From NCBI GenBank assembly GCA_016188545.1, contig JACPHO010000006.1, positions 693 to 64,692 of the forward strand: DNA of 64,000 nt, given 5' to 3'. This DNA is from Candidatus Shapirobacteria bacterium. Lineage in GTDB: Bacteria; Patescibacteriota; Microgenomatia; UBA12405. The translations under genes and the position numbers were made by a program. Below the pieces are notes generated by a model. That model searched no databases. It had not been told where the DNA came from and saw nothing but the letters and a program-made list of their open reading frames with translations. Positions within the stretch are counted from its first letter, which is position 1; each line of letters opens with the position of its first letter. Shown here piece after piece: positions 19,725 to 46,476 of the stretch.

Positions 19725-19973
19725 CTAACAAGACTGTATTTTACGAGCACAGCCACCCACAACTTCTTCCACAGCCTCTACAGTTCCTGAATTAATTTTT
19801 CGGCTGCCCGTTCCGTCTACTTGAGTTACGTTTGATACTCTGACACGAGCCCAACCCCATTGACATCCGGGACATTTAACCATCCCTTTTCCATTCACGA
19901 TACCTGTTATATTTGTTGCTGTGTCGCCAGACGTTAATTCACGAACACAACCTATCCACTCAATGTCAACCAT
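19725..19973 (-). CDS. Hypothetical small Cys-containing protein
   Basis: 82-aa ORF (CPGCQWGW); GC-richer patch; may not be a gene. Confidence 0.2.
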   Translation of the reverse strand: MVDIEWIGCVRELTSGDTATNITGIVNGKGMVKCPGCQWGWARVRVSNVTQVDGTGSRKINSGTVEAVEEVVGGCARKIQSC

Positions 19974-20031
19974 GAATCGTGATTATACTTTATTGACATT
20001 ATTTGATCTAGTAGTATACTATCTTCCAACT

Positions 20032-20631
20032 ATGAAAAAACTATTTTTTGCTTTTATTATTCTTGTTTCTAGTTTCTCGTTTCTAGTTTCACCTGTATTA
20101 GCTGAAGATGAAGTTCGTAAACTAATGTTAGACCTCAAAGTCAAAGGTTTTTCTCAAACTGTTTGGCAAGATAATCTAAGTAGCTCCAATATAATTTTTG
20201 CCCCAGGCGACAAATTCCAAGTCCAAGTAAAAATACGTAACGAAGGCAACCGCAACCAGACCCAAGTCAAGGTTCGCCAAACACTCCCTTCAACCGTCAC
20301 TTCCGACTCTCCCGTCGAATTCACCATTCCTCAGATCTCCGCCGGGCAGGACTATGTCAAAGACATTACTGTTACTGTAAAAAACAAAACCGATGTCTAC
20401 AAAGCGTTGACCAACAACTCACTTCGTTTCACTGCCAAGTCCGAAGTTGGTACCGAGTCCAGTGATTTTGCTGCTTTTTATACCAGCAATGGCACTAAAG
20501 ATATTGCCAAATCAAACACTCCCGTTCTTCCAAAAACAGGTGCTGCTTCAACTCTCATCTTCGGCTCAGCTATAGCTGCTGTCCTAGCTATTGCTGGACT
20601 CAAGCTTCGCCAAGCTGTTCGTGGATACTAA
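20032..20631 (+). CDS. Secreted LPXTG cell-wall-anchored protein (sortase substrate)
   Basis: Start at ATG 20032 (MKKLFFAFIILVSSFSFLVSPVLA signal peptide); C-terminus LPKTG + hydrophobic stretch + KLRQAVRGY positive tail. Confidence 0.7.
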   Translation: MKKLFFAFIILVSSFSFLVSPVLAEDEVRKLMLDLKVKGFSQTVWQDNLSSSNIIFAPGDKFQVQVKIRNEGNRNQTQVKVRQTLPSTVTSDSPVEFTIPQISAGQDYVKDITVTVKNKTDVYKALTNNSLRFTAKSEVGTESSDFAAFYTSNGTKDIAKSNTPVLPKTGAASTLIFGSAIAAVLAIAGLKLRQAVRGY

Positions 20632-20653
20632 AATAAATCATGATGATTTCAAG

Positions 20654-20681
20654 GACCCGCTTCGGCGGGTCTTTTTTTTAA
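20654..20681 (+). terminator. Rho-independent terminator
   Basis: GACCCGC-TTCG-GCGGGTC followed by T8, 20 nt after the LPXTG gene stop. Confidence 0.75.
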
Positions 20682-20851
20682 TATATCAAATACATACATC
20701 TCTAATTGACATTATAGGACTCGTCTGCTACACTATAGGCTAGAAAAATATACCTAGAGATCAGTAGAGAAAAAGGGGTTAGGTGGCTCCTTGTCATTTT
20801 CTTACTCCTTTTCTCTTCTGACCTCTAACCGCACATTTACAATTTGTTAGA

Positions 20852-20880
20852 TTGACAATCTGTCCAATTCTTGATAATAT
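20852..20880 (+). promoter_or_regulatory. Near-consensus sigma70-type promoter TTGACA-N17-TAATAT
   Basis: TTGACA at 20852-20857, 17-nt spacer, TAATAT at 20875-20880 (TG at 20872-20873). Confidence 0.4.
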
Positions 20881-20888
20881 TTTATCAA

Positions 20889-20954
20889 GAAAGAGCTCAG
20901 GGATTAAAGTTCCCGACGTCGACCCGCAGGGCGAGAGAGAGAGCTCTTTTTTTT
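20889..20954. terminator. Large composite hairpin (AAAGAGCTC ... GAGCTCTTT) with T8 on the + strand; bidirectional terminator or small structured RNA
   Basis: Self-complementary GAGCTC arms at 20893-20898 and 20941-20946 enclose GGGATTAAAGTTCCC and CCCGCAGGG sub-hairpins; T8 at 20947-20954. Confidence 0.5.
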
Positions 20955-21354
20955 ATGTCTTTATTTCTCCCAACCAAACACACGACAAAAAATATGGCTT
21001 ACCGCCACCAACTTTTGTCACCACTGTCTTTACCAACACGTTGTCGACCTCCGCTTCAAATGACCAATACTCAACGATTAAGTACTTTTTCTTTCGTTGG
21101 TTATAATCACAATATTTCCTACATTTTTTCAAGACACCGACCACTCGTGGTAAAGCAAAAAATCTGGTAATCAATTCATTTACCGATCGGTCTTTTTCCA
21201 CAAAATGATTCCAACCGCTATGCGTAAAATAAATATGTTTTTTAAGAGCAGGTGAATACACCTTTGTCCCTTGCAATTTGCCAATATAAAAATCTTTTGC
21301 TAGCTTCTCAGCATATTCATAAGTCGTTTTTTGAATATGGTTTAAGTCATCCAC
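20953..21354 (-). CDS. Hypothetical protein (downstream part of a TGA-interrupted reading frame; GTG start)
   Basis: 133-aa ORF; the upstream ORF 21358..21567 is in the same frame, separated by one in-frame TGA. Confidence 0.35.
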   Translation of the reverse strand: MDDLNHIQKTTYEYAEKLAKDFYIGKLQGTKVYSPALKKHIYFTHSGWNHFVEKDRSVNELITRFFALPRVVGVLKKCRKYCDYNQRKKKYLIVEYWSFEAEVDNVLVKTVVTKVGGGKPYFLSCVWLGEIKT

Positions 21355-21357
21355 ATA

Positions 21358-21567
21358 TCAATCTAACACAAAGTTATCAAAGAAGTGATAATTATTACAA
21401 ATAATTACTATTTCTTTGGTAATTCTTGTCAGCCTTTGGCTGATATTACCAAATGGCAAAAACCAAATACTTAGCATCGCGCTAAACAATTTGGAGCTTG
21501 CCAGTCCGAAGCTCGCAAGAGCGTAGGATGGTTCTTTAACAATCTTTTTTCTTGTCCGCCGTAGCAT
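21358..21567 (-). pseudogene. Upstream part of the same TGA-interrupted frame
   Basis: Reverse-strand reading: ...GAT TGA TAT GTG GAT GAC... (D * Y V D D) joins the two ORFs in one frame. Confidence 0.3.
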
Positions 21568-21905
21568 AGTTCTCGCGAAGGCGGATCATATTCGAGCTAA
21601 ATTCTAGTTTGAATATGCTTTCTTTTCAAAAAATGTGTGTATTTTGTGGTGAACTTTGACCGTCATTGCGAGGCAGTTTACCCTGAGCGAAGTCGAAGGG
21701 TGGCAATCTCTTTTTTTAATGGATCCATTTCTGGTGGCAGTATTTTATTCTCAAATTGCTTGAGGCTAAGATACTGTCACTAGAGAAATTTTCTAGAGGT
21801 TGAGTAATACTTCAAAAAGTACAAACAGTTGTACTTTAAACCCAAACATTCGCCACCGGATCCGGCGAAAATTTTTTCAATTGTCACCCTGAAAGGAGAC
21901 AACAA

Positions 21906-22577
21906 ATGAACGACTCTATGAACGTCCCTGCACGACGCAACACAAACTGGCTCGCCATCATTTTGGGCGGCCTCCTGACACTATGCCTCCTCTGCGTACT
22001 TCCAGGAATGGCATACACGTCCTGGAACATCGGCAATTCCCAACCTGCGGCCTCCGTGACCCAGATCCCCGCCGAAGCCCCCGAGCTGCACAAGCCCGCC
22101 GAGTTCCAGACCATCACGGTCAACTCGAAAGAGTACGGAACTGATTTTACCGATCGCCTCACCTTCACCAATGGCGAGATCCTCACGGGTCACGTCGCAC
22201 CTTATGAAGGCACCGAACTCGACAACATCCAGCACACCTGGGTTGACTACAATGTCGAAGTTCCTGAAGGCACGGCCTATGCTGTTGCATTCGGCTACTC
22301 GGTCAAGATCAATGGCAAGGAATACCAGCCCGGCGCTATCATCATGCTTCCAACCGATGGCGGCACCGTCAAAGTCAGCATTCTCGATGGAGAGCTGGTC
22401 TTTTGGCGTGATTTGACTGCCATGCATGATGACATCAGCGATCGCATCAGCACTGAAATTGCCAATGGCAACCTGAGCATTGATGGCCCCCTTGCCTTCT
22501 CGTTCTGCTCTCAGGAGTTCACTGGTTACGTGCCCCGCGAATTGCTCGAAGCCAATAAGGTCCAGATCGTCAAGTAG
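21906..22577 (+). CDS. Secreted/membrane-anchored hypothetical protein in a GC-rich (foreign-looking) segment
   Basis: 223 aa; perfect SD GAAAGGAGA 7 nt before ATG; N-terminal TM/signal (WLAIILGGLLTLCLLCVLPGMA); GC3-rich codons unlike the rest of the window. The long opposite-strand ORFs are typical high-GC artefacts. Confidence 0.6.
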   Translation: MNDSMNVPARRNTNWLAIILGGLLTLCLLCVLPGMAYTSWNIGNSQPAASVTQIPAEAPELHKPAEFQTITVNSKEYGTDFTDRLTFTNGEILTGHVAPYEGTELDNIQHTWVDYNVEVPEGTAYAVAFGYSVKINGKEYQPGAIIMLPTDGGTVKVSILDGELVFWRDLTAMHDDISDRISTEIANGNLSIDGPLAFSFCSQEFTGYVPRELLEANKVQIVK

Positions 22578-22747
22578 GCGCCTTGGCTCAGGCCGCCCCA
22601 CATTTTCAGAGACCCGGCAATAGCCGAGTCTCTGAATCGTGGTGGGGATTCCCCCACCACCCACACACAAAAAAGAAAAGAAAGAAGAAAAAGGTTAGCA
22701 TATTCCGATGTGTATCGGAACTGACGATTCCAAAAGGATGAAATGCT

Positions 22748-23632
22748 ATGTCCAATCTCAAAACAAAATATCCATTAATCAGCGTCATCATGCCGGTGTA
22801 CAATTCCGGAGAATTCCTAGCCCCAGCTATCGTTTCCATCCTCTCACAATCCTACAAAAATTTTGAATTTATCATTGTCGACGATGCCTCAACTGACAAC
22901 TCTTGGAAAACCATCCGTTCTTTTGCCAAAGCTGATAAACGTATCAGAATCTACCGAAACTCCATCAATTTAGGTGTCAGTTTAACTGCCAACATCGCCA
23001 CTTCCCATGCCAAAGGCAGATACTTAGCCCGCATGGATTCTGATGATATCTCCTCCCCTGACCGTCTTCAAAAACAAATAAATTTTTTTAAAAAACACCC
23101 CCAAACAATTCTTATTGGCGGCCAATGCACCATCATTAATGAATTAAACCAAGTTATTGGGTATAAAAACTTCCCTCTCTCCCCTCACGAAGCTCTCATG
23201 GACATGCTCTTTTGGGCGGTCCCTATCCAGCAAGGTTTTATGATGATCAACCTTCAAAAATTACCATCAAATTTTACCTGGTATGAAGCAGGTAAAAAAA
23301 CAGCTGAAGAAATTGACCTGTTTTTCAGGCTCTCCGAATACGGAAAGTTTGCCAATCTTGCTGATAACTTATACTTTTATCGCCAATTGTCAGGCAGTCT
23401 TTCTCACCAAAATCCCAAAAAAACTTTTTATCTCACCCTCCAATCTCGGCTACTCGCCGTCAAGAACGGCTACCAGCCATCAATCAAAGCATGGTTCCTC
23501 AACTTTGCTCAAATATTTTTAGTTGCTATTTTACCAACTTCCGCCATCTACAACATTTGGTATTTAGTTCGTGGCGTCAGCCAGCTAAAGTTAAGACTTG
23601 TCCCCACCTCCCTCTCCAGTACCAAAGCATAA
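22748..23632 (+). CDS. Glycosyltransferase family 2
   Basis: 294 aa; ISVIMPVYNSGEFL, IIVDDASTDNS, DSDD motifs (GT-A fold, DXD). Confidence 0.8.
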   Translation: MSNLKTKYPLISVIMPVYNSGEFLAPAIVSILSQSYKNFEFIIVDDASTDNSWKTIRSFAKADKRIRIYRNSINLGVSLTANIATSHAKGRYLARMDSDDISSPDRLQKQINFFKKHPQTILIGGQCTIINELNQVIGYKNFPLSPHEALMDMLFWAVPIQQGFMMINLQKLPSNFTWYEAGKKTAEEIDLFFRLSEYGKFANLADNLYFYRQLSGSLSHQNPKKTFYLTLQSRLLAVKNGYQPSIKAWFLNFAQIFLVAILPTSAIYNIWYLVRGVSQLKLRLVPTSLSSTKA

Positions 23633-23659: not shown

Positions 23660-24442
23660 ATGATCAGAGCTACTATTTTTTTCCTCAGAAGTCTTCTCTA
23701 TCACCTTACCTATTCAATATCGTCAAAAACCCCTGACAAAATAATCCTCTGTTATCACTCTGTTGGTGGTCCTAGTTGGGATTACAATGTCAAATTAAAC
23801 GATTTCAAAGATCAAATCGATTACCTTCTAACCCTTTATCAACCAACCACTTTAGACAAAATTATCACCGCGACAGCCCCCTCTTTTGTACTCACCTTTG
23901 ATGACGGCTACAAAAGTATTTTCAAAATTCACGAGTTTTTAAAGACAGAAAATATTTATCCCACCCTATTTCTTCTATCCGACAAGAAAAATCTGAATCA
24001 CCAAGAAATCGATAACAATATAAGTCTACTCAAAAATCATCAAGTCCGAAAACTAATTGCTTCCGGTTGGAAAATCGGTTCCCACGGCAGTCAACATCAA
24101 GATTATTGGCAACTCAAACCAAACGAAATTAGTTCTGAGATTGTCAAATCAAAAAGCGATCTTGAAAAAAGATTTGGAGTACCAATCAGTTGTTTCTCCT
24201 ACCCAAAGGGTAGATACTCACCAGCAATAATTGACGCAGTCAAAAACGCCGGTTACAAGATGGCCGCCACTATGGATGATGGAATCTTGGATAAAACAAC
24301 AAATCTCTATACCATTCCCCGAATCGGTGTCGACAAAACACTTAATATAGATGAGTTTAAAAGAGTATTAGCCATCTCTACAATTACCGCCAGAGGTATT
24401 GTCAAAAAACTCGGTGGCAAATTATTAGCTAAACTAATCTAG
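23660..24442 (+). CDS. Polysaccharide deacetylase (CE4/NodB homology domain)
   Basis: 260 aa; TFDDGY, HGSQH and proline-containing NodB motifs. Confidence 0.7.
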   Translation: MIRATIFFLRSLLYHLTYSISSKTPDKIILCYHSVGGPSWDYNVKLNDFKDQIDYLLTLYQPTTLDKIITATAPSFVLTFDDGYKSIFKIHEFLKTENIYPTLFLLSDKKNLNHQEIDNNISLLKNHQVRKLIASGWKIGSHGSQHQDYWQLKPNEISSEIVKSKSDLEKRFGVPISCFSYPKGRYSPAIIDAVKNAGYKMAATMDDGILDKTTNLYTIPRIGVDKTLNIDEFKRVLAISTITARGIVKKLGGKLLAKLI

Positions 24443-24711
24443 TTCTTGTACACCTCTTCATGTTTTCCAATTGCTACAAAATAAGCAGTATTCTCATCAA
24501 TATAATAAAAAATCATTCTGATACTCTCATTGATAGAAATACTCCACGATTCTTTCATTGATCCTGTTAGTTTATGCAACCTTAATGAAGGTCTTGACTT
24601 GTCCAAACAAAATATTTTTAATTTGCTTGCCACCAGATCATACAGCTTCTTGTTCTTCTTGGCTATTTTGAATAAATCTTTTTCTACTTTTGTGTCAAAT
24701 ATTACTTCCAC
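24439..24711 (-). CDS. Type II toxin, RelE/ParE family
   Basis: 90 aa; LHKLTGSMKESWSISINESIRMIFYYID..AYFVAIGKHEEVY (RelE fold signature). Confidence 0.7.
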   Translation of the reverse strand: MEVIFDTKVEKDLFKIAKKNKKLYDLVASKLKIFCLDKSRPSLRLHKLTGSMKESWSISINESIRMIFYYIDENTAYFVAIGKHEEVYKN

Positions 24712-24982
24712 TCTTCAGTTTAGCAAAATACTCATCGATATTATCAATTTTAATAGATTTGCTTTTTCCTGACAACGAGTCCGCGACTCTCTTCTTTACT
24801 CTATCCGAAGCCTCAAAAGTCGGGTACTCTTCCTCAACTTTGTTGACCATCAAATATTTGATATACGAGGCCAGAGTCATCCCCCACTTATCAGCCCTTT
24901 TCTTGACTTCATTTTTGAGAGCCACAGGCAAACTAATTTTTATCTGGGTAATTGCTTGATTCATACCACTATTATACCCCAA
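24695..24982 (-). CDS. Antitoxin, ribbon-helix-helix type
   Basis: Overlaps the toxin start by 17 nt; QIKISLPVALKNEVKKRADKWGMTLASYIKYLMV is RHH-like; probable start at the internal MNQAIT. Confidence 0.6.
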   Translation of the reverse strand: MGYNSGMNQAITQIKISLPVALKNEVKKRADKWGMTLASYIKYLMVNKVEEEYPTFEASDRVKKRVADSLSGKSKSIKIDNIDEYFAKLKSGSNI

Positions 24983-25064: not shown

Positions 25065-27848
25065 GTGCTCAAAAAAATATTTTCCTCACCATTTTTTTAC
25101 CCATCGCTCCTAACTATTGTTTTGTCGTTAATTTGTTTCGCCAATTATGTTCCCAACACCTATCTCACCGGCTGGGACAATCTCATGCCCGAACTCAATA
25201 TTTGGATGAACCTCAAGAGGTCACTTTTTGCTGTCTGGCAAGAATATCAAGGCCTTGGCCTTGTTGGTGGTATGGGCCACGCCACAGATTTGATCCGACA
25301 ACTAATTATTTTACCCTTTACTCTAGTTCTCCCTACCAATCTCATCCGCTATCTCTGGCATTTTGCCATGCTATTTCTTGGAACATTTGGAATCTATTTT
25401 GGTGTCAACAAATTATTCTTAAATCATAAATCATATTTCATAATTCCTTTTTCAAGTGCCCTATTTTATCTTCTCAATTTTGGCACCATCCAGTATTTTT
25501 GGGCTCCCCTCGAAACTTTTTCCACTTTTTGGGGATTTTTCCCTTGGCTTATATTCTTCCTTTTTGACTATCTCGAAACACCAAACAACAAAAACCTCAA
25601 AAAAATATTTTGGATAAACCTGCTCGCCATCCCCTCATTTTATGTTCAGACTCTATTTGTAGTCTATATGTTATGTGTTTCTCTTATCCTTTTTTCTCAC
25701 TTTGTATTCCATTTTAGAAGTTGGAAGTTAGAAGTCGGAAATTCCATCAGAACTATTCTACTGATCTTGCTCATCAATAGTTTCTGGCTCCTGCCTCAAA
25801 TTTACTTCCTAAAAGAAAATCTTCACAGTCCGATTGCCGGGATTGGCAACTTCATGTCCTCCGAAGAAAGCTTTACCCGTAATCAAAACCGTGGCTATCT
25901 TTCCGATTTTCTTATTTTACGGAACTATTACATCGATTTTCCCGACTCCCAAGGACCATTTATGGCACCATGGATTGTCCATTTTTCCAGTCAATATATC
26001 CTTATTTGTGGATATATCATCGGGTCTTTGACTATTTTTGGATTAATATTTCTTCTGTCTGCTCCAAAACAGCTTAGTTTCAAAAAGCTCTCAGTAGTTT
26101 TTATTTTCCTACTTTCTGCCCTCACCTTACTTTCAGCCACACCACCCTTTTCTGGATTCAATACCCTTATTCGTTTTTCAGACTTACTCAACCAAATATT
26201 TCGAGCCCCTTTCACCAAATTTATAGTCCCCACCATTTTTTCTTTTTCCTTGCTTATTGCTTATGGGCTCCATGCTTTAGCTCAATTTTTCACCCAAATT
26301 AAGTATTCCCAAAAAGTATTTACTCCACTATTTTTTATTTTTTACTTTTTACTTTTATTCACTTTCTCCTTTCCTGTCTTTAAAGGCAATCTATTTTCCA
26401 GCAAAATGCGACAAACAATTCTACCTGAATATTTTGAGATGTTCAGACACCTCCAAGCCAAATCTCCAACAGCCCGAATCAGCAACCTCCCTTCTGGTTC
26501 TTTTTGGGGATGGACAAATTATTTGTGGGGCTATCGAGGCTCAGGTTTTATTTGGTACTCTCTCCCCCAGCCAATACTCGACCGTGCCTTTGATGCTTGG
26601 AACCTAACGAATGAACAATACTACTGGGAAATCAATCTAGCTCTCCAAAAAAGAGACCCCATCCTCCTTTCTCAAGTTCTAAAAAAATATTCGATTGAGT
26701 ATATTTTGTTTGACAACAACATCTATTTTCCCGACGAATTTATCTATGCCAAACAAAGCGTAGCTACTCCCAGTTTGTTACTACAAACACCAGGTGTCTT
26801 TCTCGATCAAAGGTTTGGCAATATAAGTCTTTACAGAACTTCAGTTACTACCTCTCCATACCTTCTCACCAACCCTACCAACAGCTCCAACTCAGGTTTC
26901 CTATCTGAAGACAGTATCTACGTCCAACACCAAGACTACATCTCCACCCCATCAACTCAGAGCCTAGATTATCCTTTTGTCAATTTATTTACCAACCGTC
27001 TCCAAAACGAAATCCCCTACCAATTTAAAGTTGACAGTGACACACTTTCTATTTCACGCAAGTCAGACAACTACAAAACAACTATTCCATTAGACAATTC
27101 CATTAATATAACCAAGAATAAATCCAAAAACATCAGTCTTTTATCCAACCGCCACAATTCTCAGCTCCTTGCTTACAACTTTCCTAGCGCCACTTTATCA
27201 AAGTCGTACCTCATTCAGGTCAACTACCAATACCTCACCGGGCTGCCACTAACAATATCTGTCAACAGTGACAACCTACAACAAAAATATCTATACACCA
27301 AACTTGACAAAAAAACTGGGCTTCAGAACGCATGGTTTGTAATCCCAGCTCGGGAAACAGAGAACTATAACCAAGGTATTACAGTGGTTTTCAACAACAC
27401 CTCATTTAGCAAATTTCTAACCCAAAACAAAGTCGTCGACGTGAACATATATCCCATCCCTCTTTTCGATTTAATCCGACAATCAAGTCCCAAATCAAAT
27501 CAAATTTCTAGCAGATCCGACCTAAAATTCAAAAGCGATATCTATCATTACCAAGTTGATGTTGACTCAAATTCAACATCAAATTCCACTCTCGTCCTCC
27601 CTCAGTCCTTCTCTCCTGGCTGGCTCGCCTTCTATTTTAATTGTAAGGGTAATGCTTTATGCTTACCTACTCTCCTATCCAACCATGTCCTCATCAACAA
27701 TTGGGCCAATGGTTGGCTTGTCTCGCCGAAGCCAACCAGCGAAGGCGGAGCATTTACTATCTACATCTTCTTTTGGCCCCAGCTTCTGCAATTTCTTGGC
27801 TTTGGACTACTTATTGGCACCTTTATCTGGATTTTGAAAAAACACTAA
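25065..27848 (+). CDS. YfhO-like GT-C family membrane glycosyltransferase
   Basis: 927 aa; about 14 N-terminal TM helices, a large soluble C-terminal domain and a final C-terminal TM (LQFLGFGLLIGTFIWILKKH): YfhO/GT-C topology. A GT2 gene lies upstream. Confidence 0.55.
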   Translation: MLKKIFSSPFFYPSLLTIVLSLICFANYVPNTYLTGWDNLMPELNIWMNLKRSLFAVWQEYQGLGLVGGMGHATDLIRQLIILPFTLVLPTNLIRYLWHFAMLFLGTFGIYFGVNKLFLNHKSYFIIPFSSALFYLLNFGTIQYFWAPLETFSTFWGFFPWLIFFLFDYLETPNNKNLKKIFWINLLAIPSFYVQTLFVVYMLCVSLILFSHFVFHFRSWKLEVGNSIRTILLILLINSFWLLPQIYFLKENLHSPIAGIGNFMSSEESFTRNQNRGYLSDFLILRNYYIDFPDSQGPFMAPWIVHFSSQYILICGYIIGSLTIFGLIFLLSAPKQLSFKKLSVVFIFLLSALTLLSATPPFSGFNTLIRFSDLLNQIFRAPFTKFIVPTIFSFSLLIAYGLHALAQFFTQIKYSQKVFTPLFFIFYFLLLFTFSFPVFKGNLFSSKMRQTILPEYFEMFRHLQAKSPTARISNLPSGSFWGWTNYLWGYRGSGFIWYSLPQPILDRAFDAWNLTNEQYYWEINLALQKRDPILLSQVLKKYSIEYILFDNNIYFPDEFIYAKQSVATPSLLLQTPGVFLDQRFGNISLYRTSVTTSPYLLTNPTNSSNSGFLSEDSIYVQHQDYISTPSTQSLDYPFVNLFTNRLQNEIPYQFKVDSDTLSISRKSDNYKTTIPLDNSINITKNKSKNISLLSNRHNSQLLAYNFPSATLSKSYLIQVNYQYLTGLPLTISVNSDNLQQKYLYTKLDKKTGLQNAWFVIPARETENYNQGITVVFNNTSFSKFLTQNKVVDVNIYPIPLFDLIRQSSPKSNQISSRSDLKFKSDIYHYQVDVDSNSTSNSTLVLPQSFSPGWLAFYFNCKGNALCLPTLLSNHVLINNWANGWLVSPKPTSEGGAFTIYIFFWPQLLQFLGFGLLIGTFIWILKKH

Positions 27849-35574: not shown

Positions 35575-36435
35575 ATGAAACCCACTCGTGGTGCCAGCCT
35601 GATTCTCACTTCTGCTTTCTTTTATGCCACCTATGGCATCTGGTCGAGAATCATGGGGAATGCTTTTGGTGAATTTTCTCAAGCTTGGACCCGAGGACTG
35701 GTGTTACTAATCTTTATTTTAATTTTCAACTTTAAATATAAAATATTTAAACCTCTTCAAAAACGTGACCTGCCCTGGTTGGCCATAATCGGTTTGGCCG
35801 GTGGTATCAACCAAGCTCCATATTATTTTGGCTTTCAACATCTTAGTATCGGCACCGCCACCCTCCTTTTTTATGCCGCATTAGTCGTTGGCGGTTATCT
35901 TCTTGGCAAAATATTTTTTAAAGAACAGATTACCGGTATCAAAATTGTTAGCCTAGTGTTGGCTATTGTAGGCATGGCATCCATCTATCACTTTCAACTC
36001 TTACCATCCCAATTTTTGGCCGCTGGAATGACCATCATTTCTGGATTACTTGGAAGTATCACCGTCATCATTCCTCGAAAACTAGTCGGCAACTACCCAG
36101 AGTTTCAAGTCATGGTTAGTTACTTTTCGCTCCAAATCATCTTCAATGGAGTTCTCTCTATTTTGTTTCACAACTCCATTCCTCATATCTCAAACATTAC
36201 ACCATGGATTGGGCAGCTCGCCTATGCCATCGCCATGCTATTTGCCAACTGGGCAGCTATCGAAGGCTACAAACATTACGACGCCAGTATTGGCAGTCTC
36301 ATTGGCCTTGCTGAGATCATCTTTGGTGTGGCCTTTGGAGTCATCATTTTCCACGAACCACTAACCATAGGCATTACCTTAGGCTCTTTGATTATTATTT
36401 CTGCTGCCGCCCTGCCCCATCTAAAGCTCGGGTAA
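35575..36435 (+). CDS. EamA-like (DMT superfamily) transporter
   Basis: 286 aa; about 10 TM helices in a duplicated EamA-domain pattern. Confidence 0.65.
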   Translation: MKPTRGASLILTSAFFYATYGIWSRIMGNAFGEFSQAWTRGLVLLIFILIFNFKYKIFKPLQKRDLPWLAIIGLAGGINQAPYYFGFQHLSIGTATLLFYAALVVGGYLLGKIFFKEQITGIKIVSLVLAIVGMASIYHFQLLPSQFLAAGMTIISGLLGSITVIIPRKLVGNYPEFQVMVSYFSLQIIFNGVLSILFHNSIPHISNITPWIGQLAYAIAMLFANWAAIEGYKHYDASIGSLIGLAEIIFGVAFGVIIFHEPLTIGITLGSLIIISAAALPHLKLG

Positions 36436-45879: not shown

Positions 45880-46476
45880 ATGCCCAACAACGCCAGTAAG
45901 ACCAAACAAAAAGATTTTTTATTTCAACTCTCTCCTTTAACTCCACCAATTGATGCTGCCTGGTATGTCATTAACACCTATTCTGGTCACGAATACAAAG
46001 TCATCGACGCTCTCAAAATCCGTATCAAAACCATGAGCTTAGAAGGTGAAATCTTTCAAGCCATCATTCCTATCCAGTCAAAAATGGTTATCCGTCGTGG
46101 TACCAAGGTCAAAACTCAAGAAAAAACTTTCCCTGGTTATGTTCTCATCCAAATGGTTCTTACCGACGATTCTTGGGTCACTGTTCGTACCACTCAAGGA
46201 GTAACTGGTTTTATCGGTGTCGATAACAAACCCTCCCCCATTTCTCAAGCCGAAGTTGACCAGATTCTCAAAACCACTATCGAAGACAAGCCAAAATATC
46301 AGGCACCGTTTGGAATTGGCGATGTCGTCAAAGTCACCAACGGCCCATTTACCGACTACATTGGCGCTATTGATAGTATCGATCAGGAACGCGGTAAGAT
46401 TCGTGTCCTTATTTCTTTCTTCGAAAGAGAGACACCTGTTGAGCTTGATTTCTTACAAGTTACCCGTGAGTTATGA
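45880..46476 (+). CDS. nusG: Transcription termination/antitermination factor NusG
   Basis: NGN domain (WYVINTYSGHEYKV) and KOW (FGIGDVVKVTNGPFTDYIGAI). Confidence 0.85.
   Translation: MPNNASKTKQKDFLFQLSPLTPPIDAAWYVINTYSGHEYKVIDALKIRIKTMSLEGEIFQAIIPIQSKMVIRRGTKVKTQEKTFPGYVLIQMVLTDDSWVTVRTTQGVTGFIGVDNKPSPISQAEVDQILKTTIEDKPKYQAPFGIGDVVKVTNGPFTDYIGAIDSIDQERGKIRVLISFFERETPVELDFLQVTREL

Follow-up and report, generated by a model that had tools for sequence, protein, structure and literature searches.

In ribosomal RNA (rRNA) operons, Nus factors bound to the boxA element hold the leader until the trailer emerges and pairs with it (PMC10250234). Consensus boxA elements are also found outside rRNA operons, in the 5′ untranslated regions (UTRs) of messenger RNAs (mRNAs) for suhB and other proteins (Baniulyte et al. 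2017, PMC5725501), where they lie at most 50 nt from the start codon, repress translation and promote Rho termination. For bacterial hammerhead ribozymes that flank a single gene, a role in processing polycistronic RNAs has been proposed (PMC3088659). Here, we compare with these systems a locus in a 64,000-nt stretch of a Candidatus Shapirobacteria contig (the window; overall GC content 39.7%), in which a GC-rich open reading frame (ORF), hereafter the cassette gene, occupies a fixed chromosomal slot. The slot is located directly upstream of an envelope glycosylation module composed of a GT2 glycosyltransferase, a polysaccharide deacetylase and a polytopic membrane protein of ~860–930 amino acids (aa). 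The GC-richness of the gene is a maintained property of the cassette and not a foreign trace, and its most likely cause, in our interpretation, is RNA-level selection for a strongly folded, long-lived mRNA. Taken as a whole, the reading of the locus as a lineage-specific exchangeable gene whose GC-richness is maintained by RNA-level selection, and which is framed in the style of an rRNA and followed by a hammerhead, stands in our judgement about evenly balanced between right and wrong.

The cassette gene (Table 1) has a GC content of 54.9% and a GC content at third codon positions (GC3) of 68.8%. As GC3 averages 38.7% (standard deviation 4.7) in the 55 other ORFs of the window, this corresponds to a z score of 6.4. 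A 200-nt GC profile rises from 0.37 at 21700–21899 to 0.59 at 21900–22099 and is at 0.43 at 22600–22799; the step up coincides with the start codon, and the return to 0.43 takes place about 90 nt past the stop codon. The GC content is thus elevated in the coding sequence (CDS) and the 3′ hairpins, and the lower leader is ordinary (0.39). An earlier reading of the letters alone (the original prediction) had noticed an abrupt switch to GC3-rich codons in a gene with its own Shine–Dalgarno (SD) sequence and strong hairpins after the stop, all of which the profile, the comparison with the 55 ORFs and the feature map bear out, and had taken the gene for a horizontally acquired cassette or an assembly chimera.

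The DNA context of the gene was compared in 14 loci from independent samples (locus labels L001–L005, L006, L007–L011, L051, L083, L132 and L133). The gene order is identical in all 11 loci with enough flanking sequence: one or more upstream genes (a nucleoside triphosphate (NTP)-transferase in most loci), the cassette gene, the GT2 glycosyltransferase, in some loci the polysaccharide deacetylase, and the large membrane protein, with SHMT next wherever the locus is long enough. The host genomes are low in GC (31–46%) and Shapirobacteria-like, and one member of the cluster is annotated Shapirobacteria. The cassette gene is GC-richer than the rest of its locus in 14 cases out of 14, by a mean of 11.7 percentage points (range +4.0 to +17.9, sign test p = 1.2e-4). 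Its GC content correlates with that of the host (r = 0.62), as would be the case if, in each host, AT-biased mutation were balanced against a force that favours GC. Furthermore, the excess is kept by alleles with a protein identity of 28–45%, at which synonymous sites are saturated, and it therefore cannot reflect an unameliorated recent import. A search of 185,579 species-representative genomes returned a single relative, located in the same slot (L006, contig DATMWB010000028.1). The deposited name of the contig is Candidatus Methanoperedens sp. In gene order and sequence it corresponds to the Shapirobacteria loci (NTP-transferase, cassette, GT2, 893-aa membrane protein, SHMT, thymidine kinase), which makes mis-binning of a contig from the candidate phyla radiation (CPR), or co-abundance of its source with the archaeon, the probable explanation.

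The product of the cassette gene is 100% identical to the NCBI hypothetical protein HYV64_04875. Its N-terminus carries a basic stretch followed by a hydrophobic segment of ~20 residues (about residues 15–36, Kyte–Doolittle 2.5), which fits a signal anchor or signal peptide, in agreement with the secreted or anchored protein that had been predicted. Close relatives are rare (only four among 5.8 billion proteins), and a profile search of 1.84 billion representatives collected ~60 clusters. The C-terminal domain of ~160 aa is common to the five close members and to about 60 distant clusters. The N-termini are unrelated, consisting of a transmembrane (TM) anchor in the window and of lipobox-type signals or a zinc ribbon with a TM segment in relatives, and are followed by Pro/Thr/Ala linkers. 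Compared with L001, the domain displays 0.13 nonsynonymous (dN) and 0.80 synonymous (dS) substitutions per site; judged by this dN/dS of ~0.17, the ORF is a real protein under purifying selection. An AlphaFold2 model built with 57 sequences reached a pLDDT of 90.3 and a pTM of 0.85 (a five-sequence input gave a pLDDT of 65). The protein had no significant match by sequence in Pfam, NCBIfam, PHROGs or the PDB, and the predicted model had none in Foldseek searches of the PDB and BFVD. We conclude that the protein is by all its predicted features membrane-anchored or secreted and lineage-specific to Shapirobacteria-like CPR bacteria, and its architecture and its envelope-glycosylation neighbours suggest that it is exposed on the cell surface.

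The histories of the gene and its flanks disagree. L007 and L010 are 86% identical in GT2 and 78% in the membrane protein and only 28% in the cassette domain, while the window and L001 are 82% identical in the domain and only 72% and 63% in the flanks, with a dS of 0.8 in the cassette gene versus 2.1–3.4 in the flanks. Alleles have thus been exchanged among related genomes at the slot. The nucleotide identity of L007 and L010 is ~76% in the upper leader, drops to background right after the post-boxA arm (see below), remains there through the lower leader and the CDS, and is back to 78–90% at the 3′ hairpin and the hammerhead. The loss of identity falls exactly between the two helix arms, a pattern by which alleles that include the lower leader are swapped by recombination in the conserved flanks. 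The term cassette was therefore apt insofar as the gene is exchangeable, but the exchange takes place among relatives at one slot. In these respects the slot resembles the allelic replacement loci of bacterial surfaces (capsule and O-antigen clusters, pilin and S-layer variants), which likewise display conserved flanks, divergent alleles and conflicting phylogenies; its product is also probably located at the surface and adjoins glycosylation genes. Unlike them, the slot holds a single small gene, and each allele is GC-richer than every known host. Surface allelic replacement loci usually show a low-GC signature.

The CDS of the cassette gene has a predicted folding energy of −219.9 kcal/mol, compared to −124.6 kcal/mol for an equal length of GT2. 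We examined this stability by permuting synonymous codons within each gene with the protein, the codon usage and GC3 held fixed. The native cassettes were more stable than their permutations in 10 of 10 alleles, with z ≤ −2.8 in eight and a mean z of −2.88; the mean z of 16 control segments was −0.74 (Mann–Whitney p = 3e-4 versus the cassettes, n = 10). Ordinary translational codon bias was discarded as a source of the composition, as the genes of ribosomal proteins L1, L10 and L11 have a GC3 of 0.41–0.43 and prefer other codons (GGT, GCT, CTT, CAA and AAA, where the cassette uses GGC, GCC, CTC/CTG, CAG and AAG). Klein, Misulovin and Eddy reportedly described in 2002 how GC-rich islands mark structural RNA genes in AT-rich genomes. 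Like such islands, the cassette forms a sharp GC peak in an AT-rich genome and has a highly folded transcript; unlike them, it codes for a protein under purifying selection and has no RNA structure conserved across alleles.

Conservation and covariation argue for an rRNA-like framing of this message. The promoter consensus suggests that the leader is transcribed, and L001 and L004 have a homologous promoter (TTGACATTATAGG...TATAAT). The motif of the hairpin at the 5′ end of the leader was found in six loci, for which RNAalifold predicts 26 pairs; compensatory changes support 11 of these. Rfam contains no family for this hairpin (20755–20827). The position of the putative boxA is conserved in nine of the ten other loci with leader sequence (0–2 mismatches), the element being perfect in five loci and carrying one or two mismatches in five more. 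It is one of two matches to the consensus in the window, where 0.72 are expected. The other, GTTCTTTAAAA at 35916–35926 (− strand), is antisense inside the ORF 35575–36435 and is probably a chance match, because 0.72 are expected per window. The boxA of the cassette lies in a promoter-preceded leader with partners like those of rRNA operons, namely a hairpin upstream and a pairing segment downstream. The hairpin has covarying equivalents in L001, L004, L006 and L011. Further down the leader, the base of a long stem is conserved and its upper part covaries in L001, and its G·U pairs fit only the RNA of the + strand. The equivalent in L001 of the hairpin at 21849–21869 is a compensatory stem, CUCCC-CCGGAUCC-GGGAG.

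The segment that follows boxA is predicted to pair with a trailer behind the CDS. In nine of ten loci, it contains a perfect complement of 11–16 nt to the 3′ flank, starting 7–13 nt after boxA, and runs of this length are reached by 0–1 of 300 shuffled flanks. The arms fall into four unrelated classes (Table 1), and the cross-locus duplex matrix is block-structured; the homologue of the trailer in L001, L003, L006 and L011, GAAGAAAGAGAUU, is fully complementary to the post-boxA segment. The helix measures 16 bp in L133 and 13 bp in L010. Analogous to the leader of rRNA operons (boxB/boxA/boxC; PMC10250234, PMC4807359), the trailer-pairing segment begins within ~10 nt after boxA, a hairpin precedes boxA, and the enclosed RNA is strongly folded and GC-rich against an AT-rich genome. 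The helix, however, encloses a protein-coding sequence in which Rfam detects no rRNA, and thus falls outside the rRNA class in spite of having the same geometry. Unlike the product of an rRNA operon, the cassette RNA is an mRNA that has an SD sequence and is translated into a conserved protein, its helix measures 11–16 bp as opposed to 17–44 bp, and its 3′ boundary carries a hammerhead ribozyme. The locus also departs from the mRNA boxA sites described earlier (PMC5725501), with which it shares a consensus boxA in a 5′ UTR outside rRNA operons: here boxA goes together with a leader–trailer helix and is found ~365 nt upstream of the gene (150–210 nt in relatives).

The candidate hammerhead between the trailer and the start codon of GT2 is of type III and has a core, CUGA(U/C/A)GA and GAA, that is invariant in 11 loci. 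R1, a covariance model derived from five loci, detects a single copy at the slot position in each of nine loci (E values from 1e-23 to 2.5e-6). Of the cells in the alignment, 97.1% are paired, and both partners vary in 12 of the 16 pairs; none of 500 shuffles attains this level of pairing, and slid controls reach at most 49%. The minimum free energy fold is a three-way junction in both the window and L001. In the window, the A15.1–U16.1 pair is formed by A22743 and U22701, and position H17 is A22702 (non-G), where the RNA would be expected to cleave itself. Manual reading assigns U15.1–A16.1 to L009 and L010, although the model-fitted alignment shows one such locus only; this variant is slow but active (PMC3088659). 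Bacterial and prophage hammerheads (Perreault et al. 2011, PMC3088659; Rfam Hammerhead_3 and Hammerhead_1) share with the slot ribozyme the CUGANGA...GAA core, A15.1–U16.1, a non-G cleavage site, three covarying stems and an intercistronic position that suggests mRNA processing. Those hammerheads lie next to integrases, whereas the one described here is chromosomal and conserved in a core CPR envelope operon. It further differs from known hammerheads in overlapping the SD sequence of the next gene and abutting its start codon, and in a score below the Rfam thresholds, with a U·U at 10.1/11.1 in the window and two relatives. The SD sequence of GT2, AAGGA (22734–22738), comprises the loop and the 3′ strand of stem II, and its ATG directly follows stem III. 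Ribozyme folding and the initiation of GT2 translation may thus compete. The same overlap of the GT2 SD sequence and ATG with the ribozyme is seen in several loci (L001, L005, L006, L011), and elsewhere the ATG is further downstream.

Table 1. Predicted elements of the cassette locus. Positions refer to the window; arm classes are those of the leader–trailer helix across loci.
Feature	Position	Strand	Remarks
Sigma-70-type promoter (TTGACA, 17 nt, TACACT)	20706–20734	+	read from sequence; after the terminator of the upstream LPXTG/CARDB gene
Conserved 5′ leader hairpin, GGGGU.AGGUGGCUCC...CUUACUCC.UUUCUC	20755–20827	+	3′ part also written CUUACUCCGUUUCUCC
AT-rich insertion of ~600 nt	20832–21432	−	boundaries approximate; window-specific; splits the leader; absent from L001
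Leader hairpin, CCUUUGG...CCAAAUGG	21433–21456	+	upstream of boxA
boxA-like element, GTTCTTTAACA	21531–21541	+	perfect match to the consensus GYTCTTTAANA (PMC5725501)
5′ arm of leader–trailer helix, UCUUUUUUCUU	21543–21553	+	post-boxA segment
Terminator-like AT-rich hairpin with U-run inside the leader	21587–21617	+	downstream of boxA; consensus scan, inverted repeat I4
Lower-leader stem, UCUGGUGGCAG.../...CUGUCACUAGA	21730–21784	+	25-nt arms, 80% complementary
Perfect palindrome, AAAGTACAA-ACAG-TTGTACTTT	21816–21837	+	5′ UTR hairpin; ends 68 nt before the ATG
5′ UTR hairpin, UUCGCC-ACCGGAUCC-GGCGAA	21849–21869	+	just upstream of the SD sequence
SD sequence, AAAGGAGA	21892–21899	+	read from sequence; 7 nt before ATG 21906
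GC-rich CDS (cassette gene)	21906–22577	+	223 aa; N-terminal membrane anchor or signal, short Pro/Ala linker, conserved ~160-aa C-terminal domain
Antisense ORF	21981–22670	−	229 aa; by-product, not a gene
GC-rich 3′ UTR hairpin	22605–22636	+	14-nt arms, 93% complementary
GC-rich 3′ UTR hairpin	22639–22660	+	9-bp perfect, loop ATTC
Purine tract with 3′ arm (trailer)	22669–22694	+	register ambiguous in the window
Type III hammerhead	22697–22747	+	between the trailer and the GT2 start codon
Hammerhead stem III	22697–22701/22743–22747	+	open; predicted cleavage after A22702
Hammerhead stem I	22703–22709/22714–22720	+
Hammerhead core	22721–22727; 22740–22742	+	CUGACGA; GAA
Hammerhead stem II	22728–22731/22736–22739	+	UUCC-AAAA-GGAU
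GT2 glycosyltransferase	22748–23632	+	Pfam PF00535, E = 1.9e-36; first conserved gene after the slot
Arm class 1			5′ AAUCUCUUUCUUCU; 3′ AGAAGAAAGAGAUU
Arm class 2			5′ UUUGCAAGACUAA; 3′ UUAGUCUUGCAAA
Arm class 3			5′ AUUUGCUUGCUC; 3′ GAGCAAGCAAAU
Arm class 4			5′ AUCCACAAAACUCUUC; 3′ GAAGAGUUUUGUGGAU

Combining these elements, we propose the following model for the expression of the cassette gene. A strong promoter would drive a long untranslated leader, in which boxA would recruit Nus factors, such that the RNA polymerase would resist termination as it does on rRNA operons. The segment 3′ of boxA would then pair with the trailer behind the CDS, so that the message would be bracketed by the leader–trailer helix. 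The hammerhead would cut the polycistronic transcript between the cassette gene and GT2 and, after cleavage, the 3′ end of the cassette mRNA would be base-paired and protected by hairpins, and the mRNA would be uncoupled from the message of the glycosyltransferase. Nus binding and stabilisation of the mRNA are steps that we infer from the layout of the locus, as is a causal link between this framing and the GC content.

Several observations weigh against this model, most of them in the window itself, whose framing looks partly eroded or degraded. Its leader is split by the ~600-nt insertion with an ORF on the opposite strand. Its helix has a perfect run of only 8 nt (11 with G·U pairs), which is matched by 20 of 300 shuffles and is not significant alone. 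Stem II of its hammerhead, as in L001 and L133, has a U·U in place of the closing pair G10.1–C11.1, which is G–C in seven other loci, and the activity of the window copy is uncertain because of it. In the window and 13 loci, the Rfam hammerhead models stay below the gathering threshold, and at E ≤ 10 they give no hit in the window. At the gathering threshold (window and 13 loci), and at E ≤ 10 in 20600–22800, Rfam finds only tRNAs and noise; in L007 there is only a 15.4-bit local match to the Hammerhead_1 core. The boxA is an 11-mer, and its consensus, taken from PMC5725501, may not be that of the host's own rRNA leaders. As for the folding, the z score of the window gene is only −1.8 (0 of 30 permutations as stable), and 3 of the 16 control segments are also at z ≤ −2. 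No base-pairing inside the CDS is shared among eight alleles (RNAalifold, −5 kcal/mol, few pairs). A specific conserved RNA structure within the CDS was thus not found, and any selection at the RNA level would therefore act on foldedness in general. The effects of such selection are difficult to tell apart from those of a compositional drive, for example GC-biased gene conversion.

The explanations that treat the gene as foreign fare poorly. Recent, unameliorated horizontal acquisition from a high-GC donor would account for the strongly atypical composition, for the lack of matches in Pfam, NCBIfam and PHROGs and for N-terminal modules that vary between close alleles. However, the slot is kept in 11 of 11 loci of low-GC genomes, the excess holds in 14 of 14, including the most divergent alleles, and the locus carries no signatures of mobility or of an insertion site: neither an integrase nor a tRNA target or junction accompanies the gene, and direct repeats do not flank it. 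Relatives number zero among 2.9 million viral contigs, on which ground a phage origin was rejected, and one among the species-representative genomes, and the LPD3-like insertion nearby is separate and AT-rich. A donor lineage sought by homology did not emerge either, as the relatives sit in the same slot of Shapirobacteria-like genomes and no member was found in another context; the gene is a conserved core gene of its lineage, and its foreign origin, as supposed in the original prediction, is not supported and in our view highly improbable. The same two facts, the constant slot and the universal GC excess, speak against an assembly chimera or a contaminating fragment, to which we assign next to no probability. 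The composition does change abruptly at both ends of the gene, but the same gene, junctions and GC excess recur in independent assemblies of other samples, with conserved non-coding sequence on both sides, and functional elements cross the junctions (the SD sequence at the 5′ end, the trailer and hammerhead at the 3′ end).

Among the explanations that accept the gene as native, the main rival is GC-biased gene conversion at a recombination hot spot, which would raise GC3 and leave the folding as a side effect. Consistent with it, allele exchange is documented, dS is lower in the gene than in its flanks, G3 and C3 are both up while A3 and T3 are down, and the GC content of the cassette follows that of the host at a constant offset. 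The lower leader, however, is inside the segment exchanged between L007 and L010 and is not GC-enriched (0.39 in the window, 0.39 in L007, 0.35 in L010), and eight of ten alleles display excess structure in a permutation test in which composition is fixed; to our knowledge, such conversion has not been demonstrated in CPR bacteria. We consider this explanation unlikely, yet deserving of serious attention. The possibility that high GC serves an overlapping antisense gene stems from the long ORFs on both strands that were noted originally. An antisense ORF of 229 aa does exist in the window, and one of 219 aa is present in L006 in the same relative frame. It is, however, a by-product rather than a gene: its frame is codon-aligned, its stops correspond to sense TTA, CTA and TCA codons (1 here versus 10 expected), and it can thus be open only where these codons are avoided. 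Since 4–19 antisense stops interrupt the domain region in each of five orthologues (L003, L005, L007, L010, L011), and substitutions between the window and L001 are mostly at sense third positions, we set dual coding aside as hardly credible. Finally, the arms could be DNA inverted repeats of an invertible, phase-variable cassette and not an RNA helix, as inverted repeats of 11–16 bp around a promoterless surface-protein gene resemble invertons. Against this, the orientation of the gene relative to GT2 is the same in 14 of 14 loci, genes for a recombinase are absent from the neighbourhood, the spacing between boxA and the 5′ arm is fixed (7–13 nt), like that of boxC in rRNA leaders, some arms extend via G·U pairs that work only as RNA of the + strand, and the layout of promoter, boxA, arm, second arm and hammerhead recurs around unrelated small genes. 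We thus regard an inverton as improbable. RNA-level selection on a native, exchangeable gene remains the reading that we prefer.

The surroundings of the gene contain further features. The perfect palindrome in the 5′ UTR is real, but it had been placed 7 nt off its position, at 21823–21844. The window contains ~11 distinct perfect hairpins of at least 9 bp versus 1.5 expected from shuffles, and the palindrome is thus non-random yet not unique; a role as a conserved operator was rejected, as its sequence is not kept in the closest relative, L001. The hairpins that follow the stop codon are not intrinsic terminators because no T-run follows them, and at their position relatives carry another strong hairpin, CCCCCGUGGGAAC...GUUCCCACGGGAG. 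The insertion, which sits between the 5′ leader hairpin and the boxA region, contains an ORF of 133 aa (20953–21354, − strand) with eight relatives (a nine-member family). The window protein matches LPD3 (large polyvalent protein-associated domain 3) weakly (E = 0.011), and a homologue 73% identical to it passes the Pfam threshold for LPD3, a domain typical of mobile elements. No rRNA operon is present within the 64 kb, and nusG (45880–46476) is the only Nus-factor gene seen there.

The upstream neighbour of the leader (19921–20631) codes for a CARDB-domain protein with a C-terminal LPKTG sortase-type motif and a TM tail, orthologous to L001 1124–1726 (55% identity), which places the slot among cell-surface genes. 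Downstream, a YafQ/RelE-like toxin (89 aa) and a ribbon-helix-helix antitoxin (94 aa) are encoded at 24439–24982 (− strand), between the deacetylase and the large membrane protein, where L001 has a short spacer only. The membrane protein itself (25065–27848, 927 aa) is polytopic, lies next to GT2 in all loci with 52–78% identity, and has no match in Pfam, NCBIfam or PHROG. C exceeds G on the + strand along the whole window (1–64000), a strongly negative GC skew that does not depend on gene orientation; third positions are C-rich in genes of the + strand and G-rich in genes of the − strand.

The elements described above recur at other loci. Scanning metagenomes with the hammerhead core string CTGAYGAGTCCAAAAGGACGAA retrieved at least 120 loci (L012–L131), mostly unrelated hammerhead loci, with two new members of the slot among the matches listed. 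The compact type III hammerhead is common in metagenomes, model R1 matching full-length in many unrelated loci, sometimes twice per locus; at the gathering score, Rfam calls none of the compact metagenomic hammerheads among the matches listed. In 45 of the 54 unrelated hammerhead loci among these matches, the GC content of the 600 nt upstream exceeds that of the 600 nt downstream (difference +5.6 points, p = 2.6e-7). A complete module surrounds unrelated small ORFs of 76–116 aa in L033 (1890–2620), L043 (6120–6700) and L130 (1880–2330). Its order is a TTGACA/−10 promoter, a boxA (GTTCTTTAAAA or GTTCTTTGAAA) at the transcript start, an arm of 10–13 nt, the ORF, the complementary arm, a hairpin and the hammerhead. 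A boxA-like motif follows the ribozyme within 10 nt in L130, L014, L023 and L053; directly after the hammerhead, such a motif is found in 3–4 of 113 loci among the matches listed versus 0.2 expected. This recurrence suggests a more general module. We tentatively propose, while thinking it somewhat more doubtful than the reading of the cassette locus, that uncultured bacteria, including CPR, use a general and hitherto undescribed mRNA maturation module of promoter, boxA, leader–trailer helix and type III hammerhead, by which messages are made like rRNA. If so, these messages would be anti-terminated, uncoupled from translation, paired at their ends, trimmed by a ribozyme and selected to be GC-rich and self-folded, and the exchangeable surface-protein cassette would be the cargo of the module in Shapirobacteria.

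Composition outliers are routinely dismissed as horizontal transfer or misassembly. Here, a gene that stays 4–18 GC points above its host (mean 12), with alleles less than 30% identical, indicates a standing force, selection or biased conversion, that acts on one gene. The locus combines three features known only separately: (i) a boxA outside rRNA, (ii) a leader–trailer helix, hitherto known only from rRNA, around an mRNA, and (iii) a conserved chromosomal hammerhead at a cistron boundary that overlaps the ribosome-binding site of the next gene. If the proposed mechanism is true, it would provide a testable answer to the role of bacterial hammerheads and would show by what means a single surface protein is expressed at a high level or durably in slow-growing, AT-rich symbionts. 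With its ~60 clusters, a confidently predicted fold that has no match, variable anchors and swapped alleles, the family to which this protein belongs is a candidate determinant of host contact or phage reception in CPR episymbionts.

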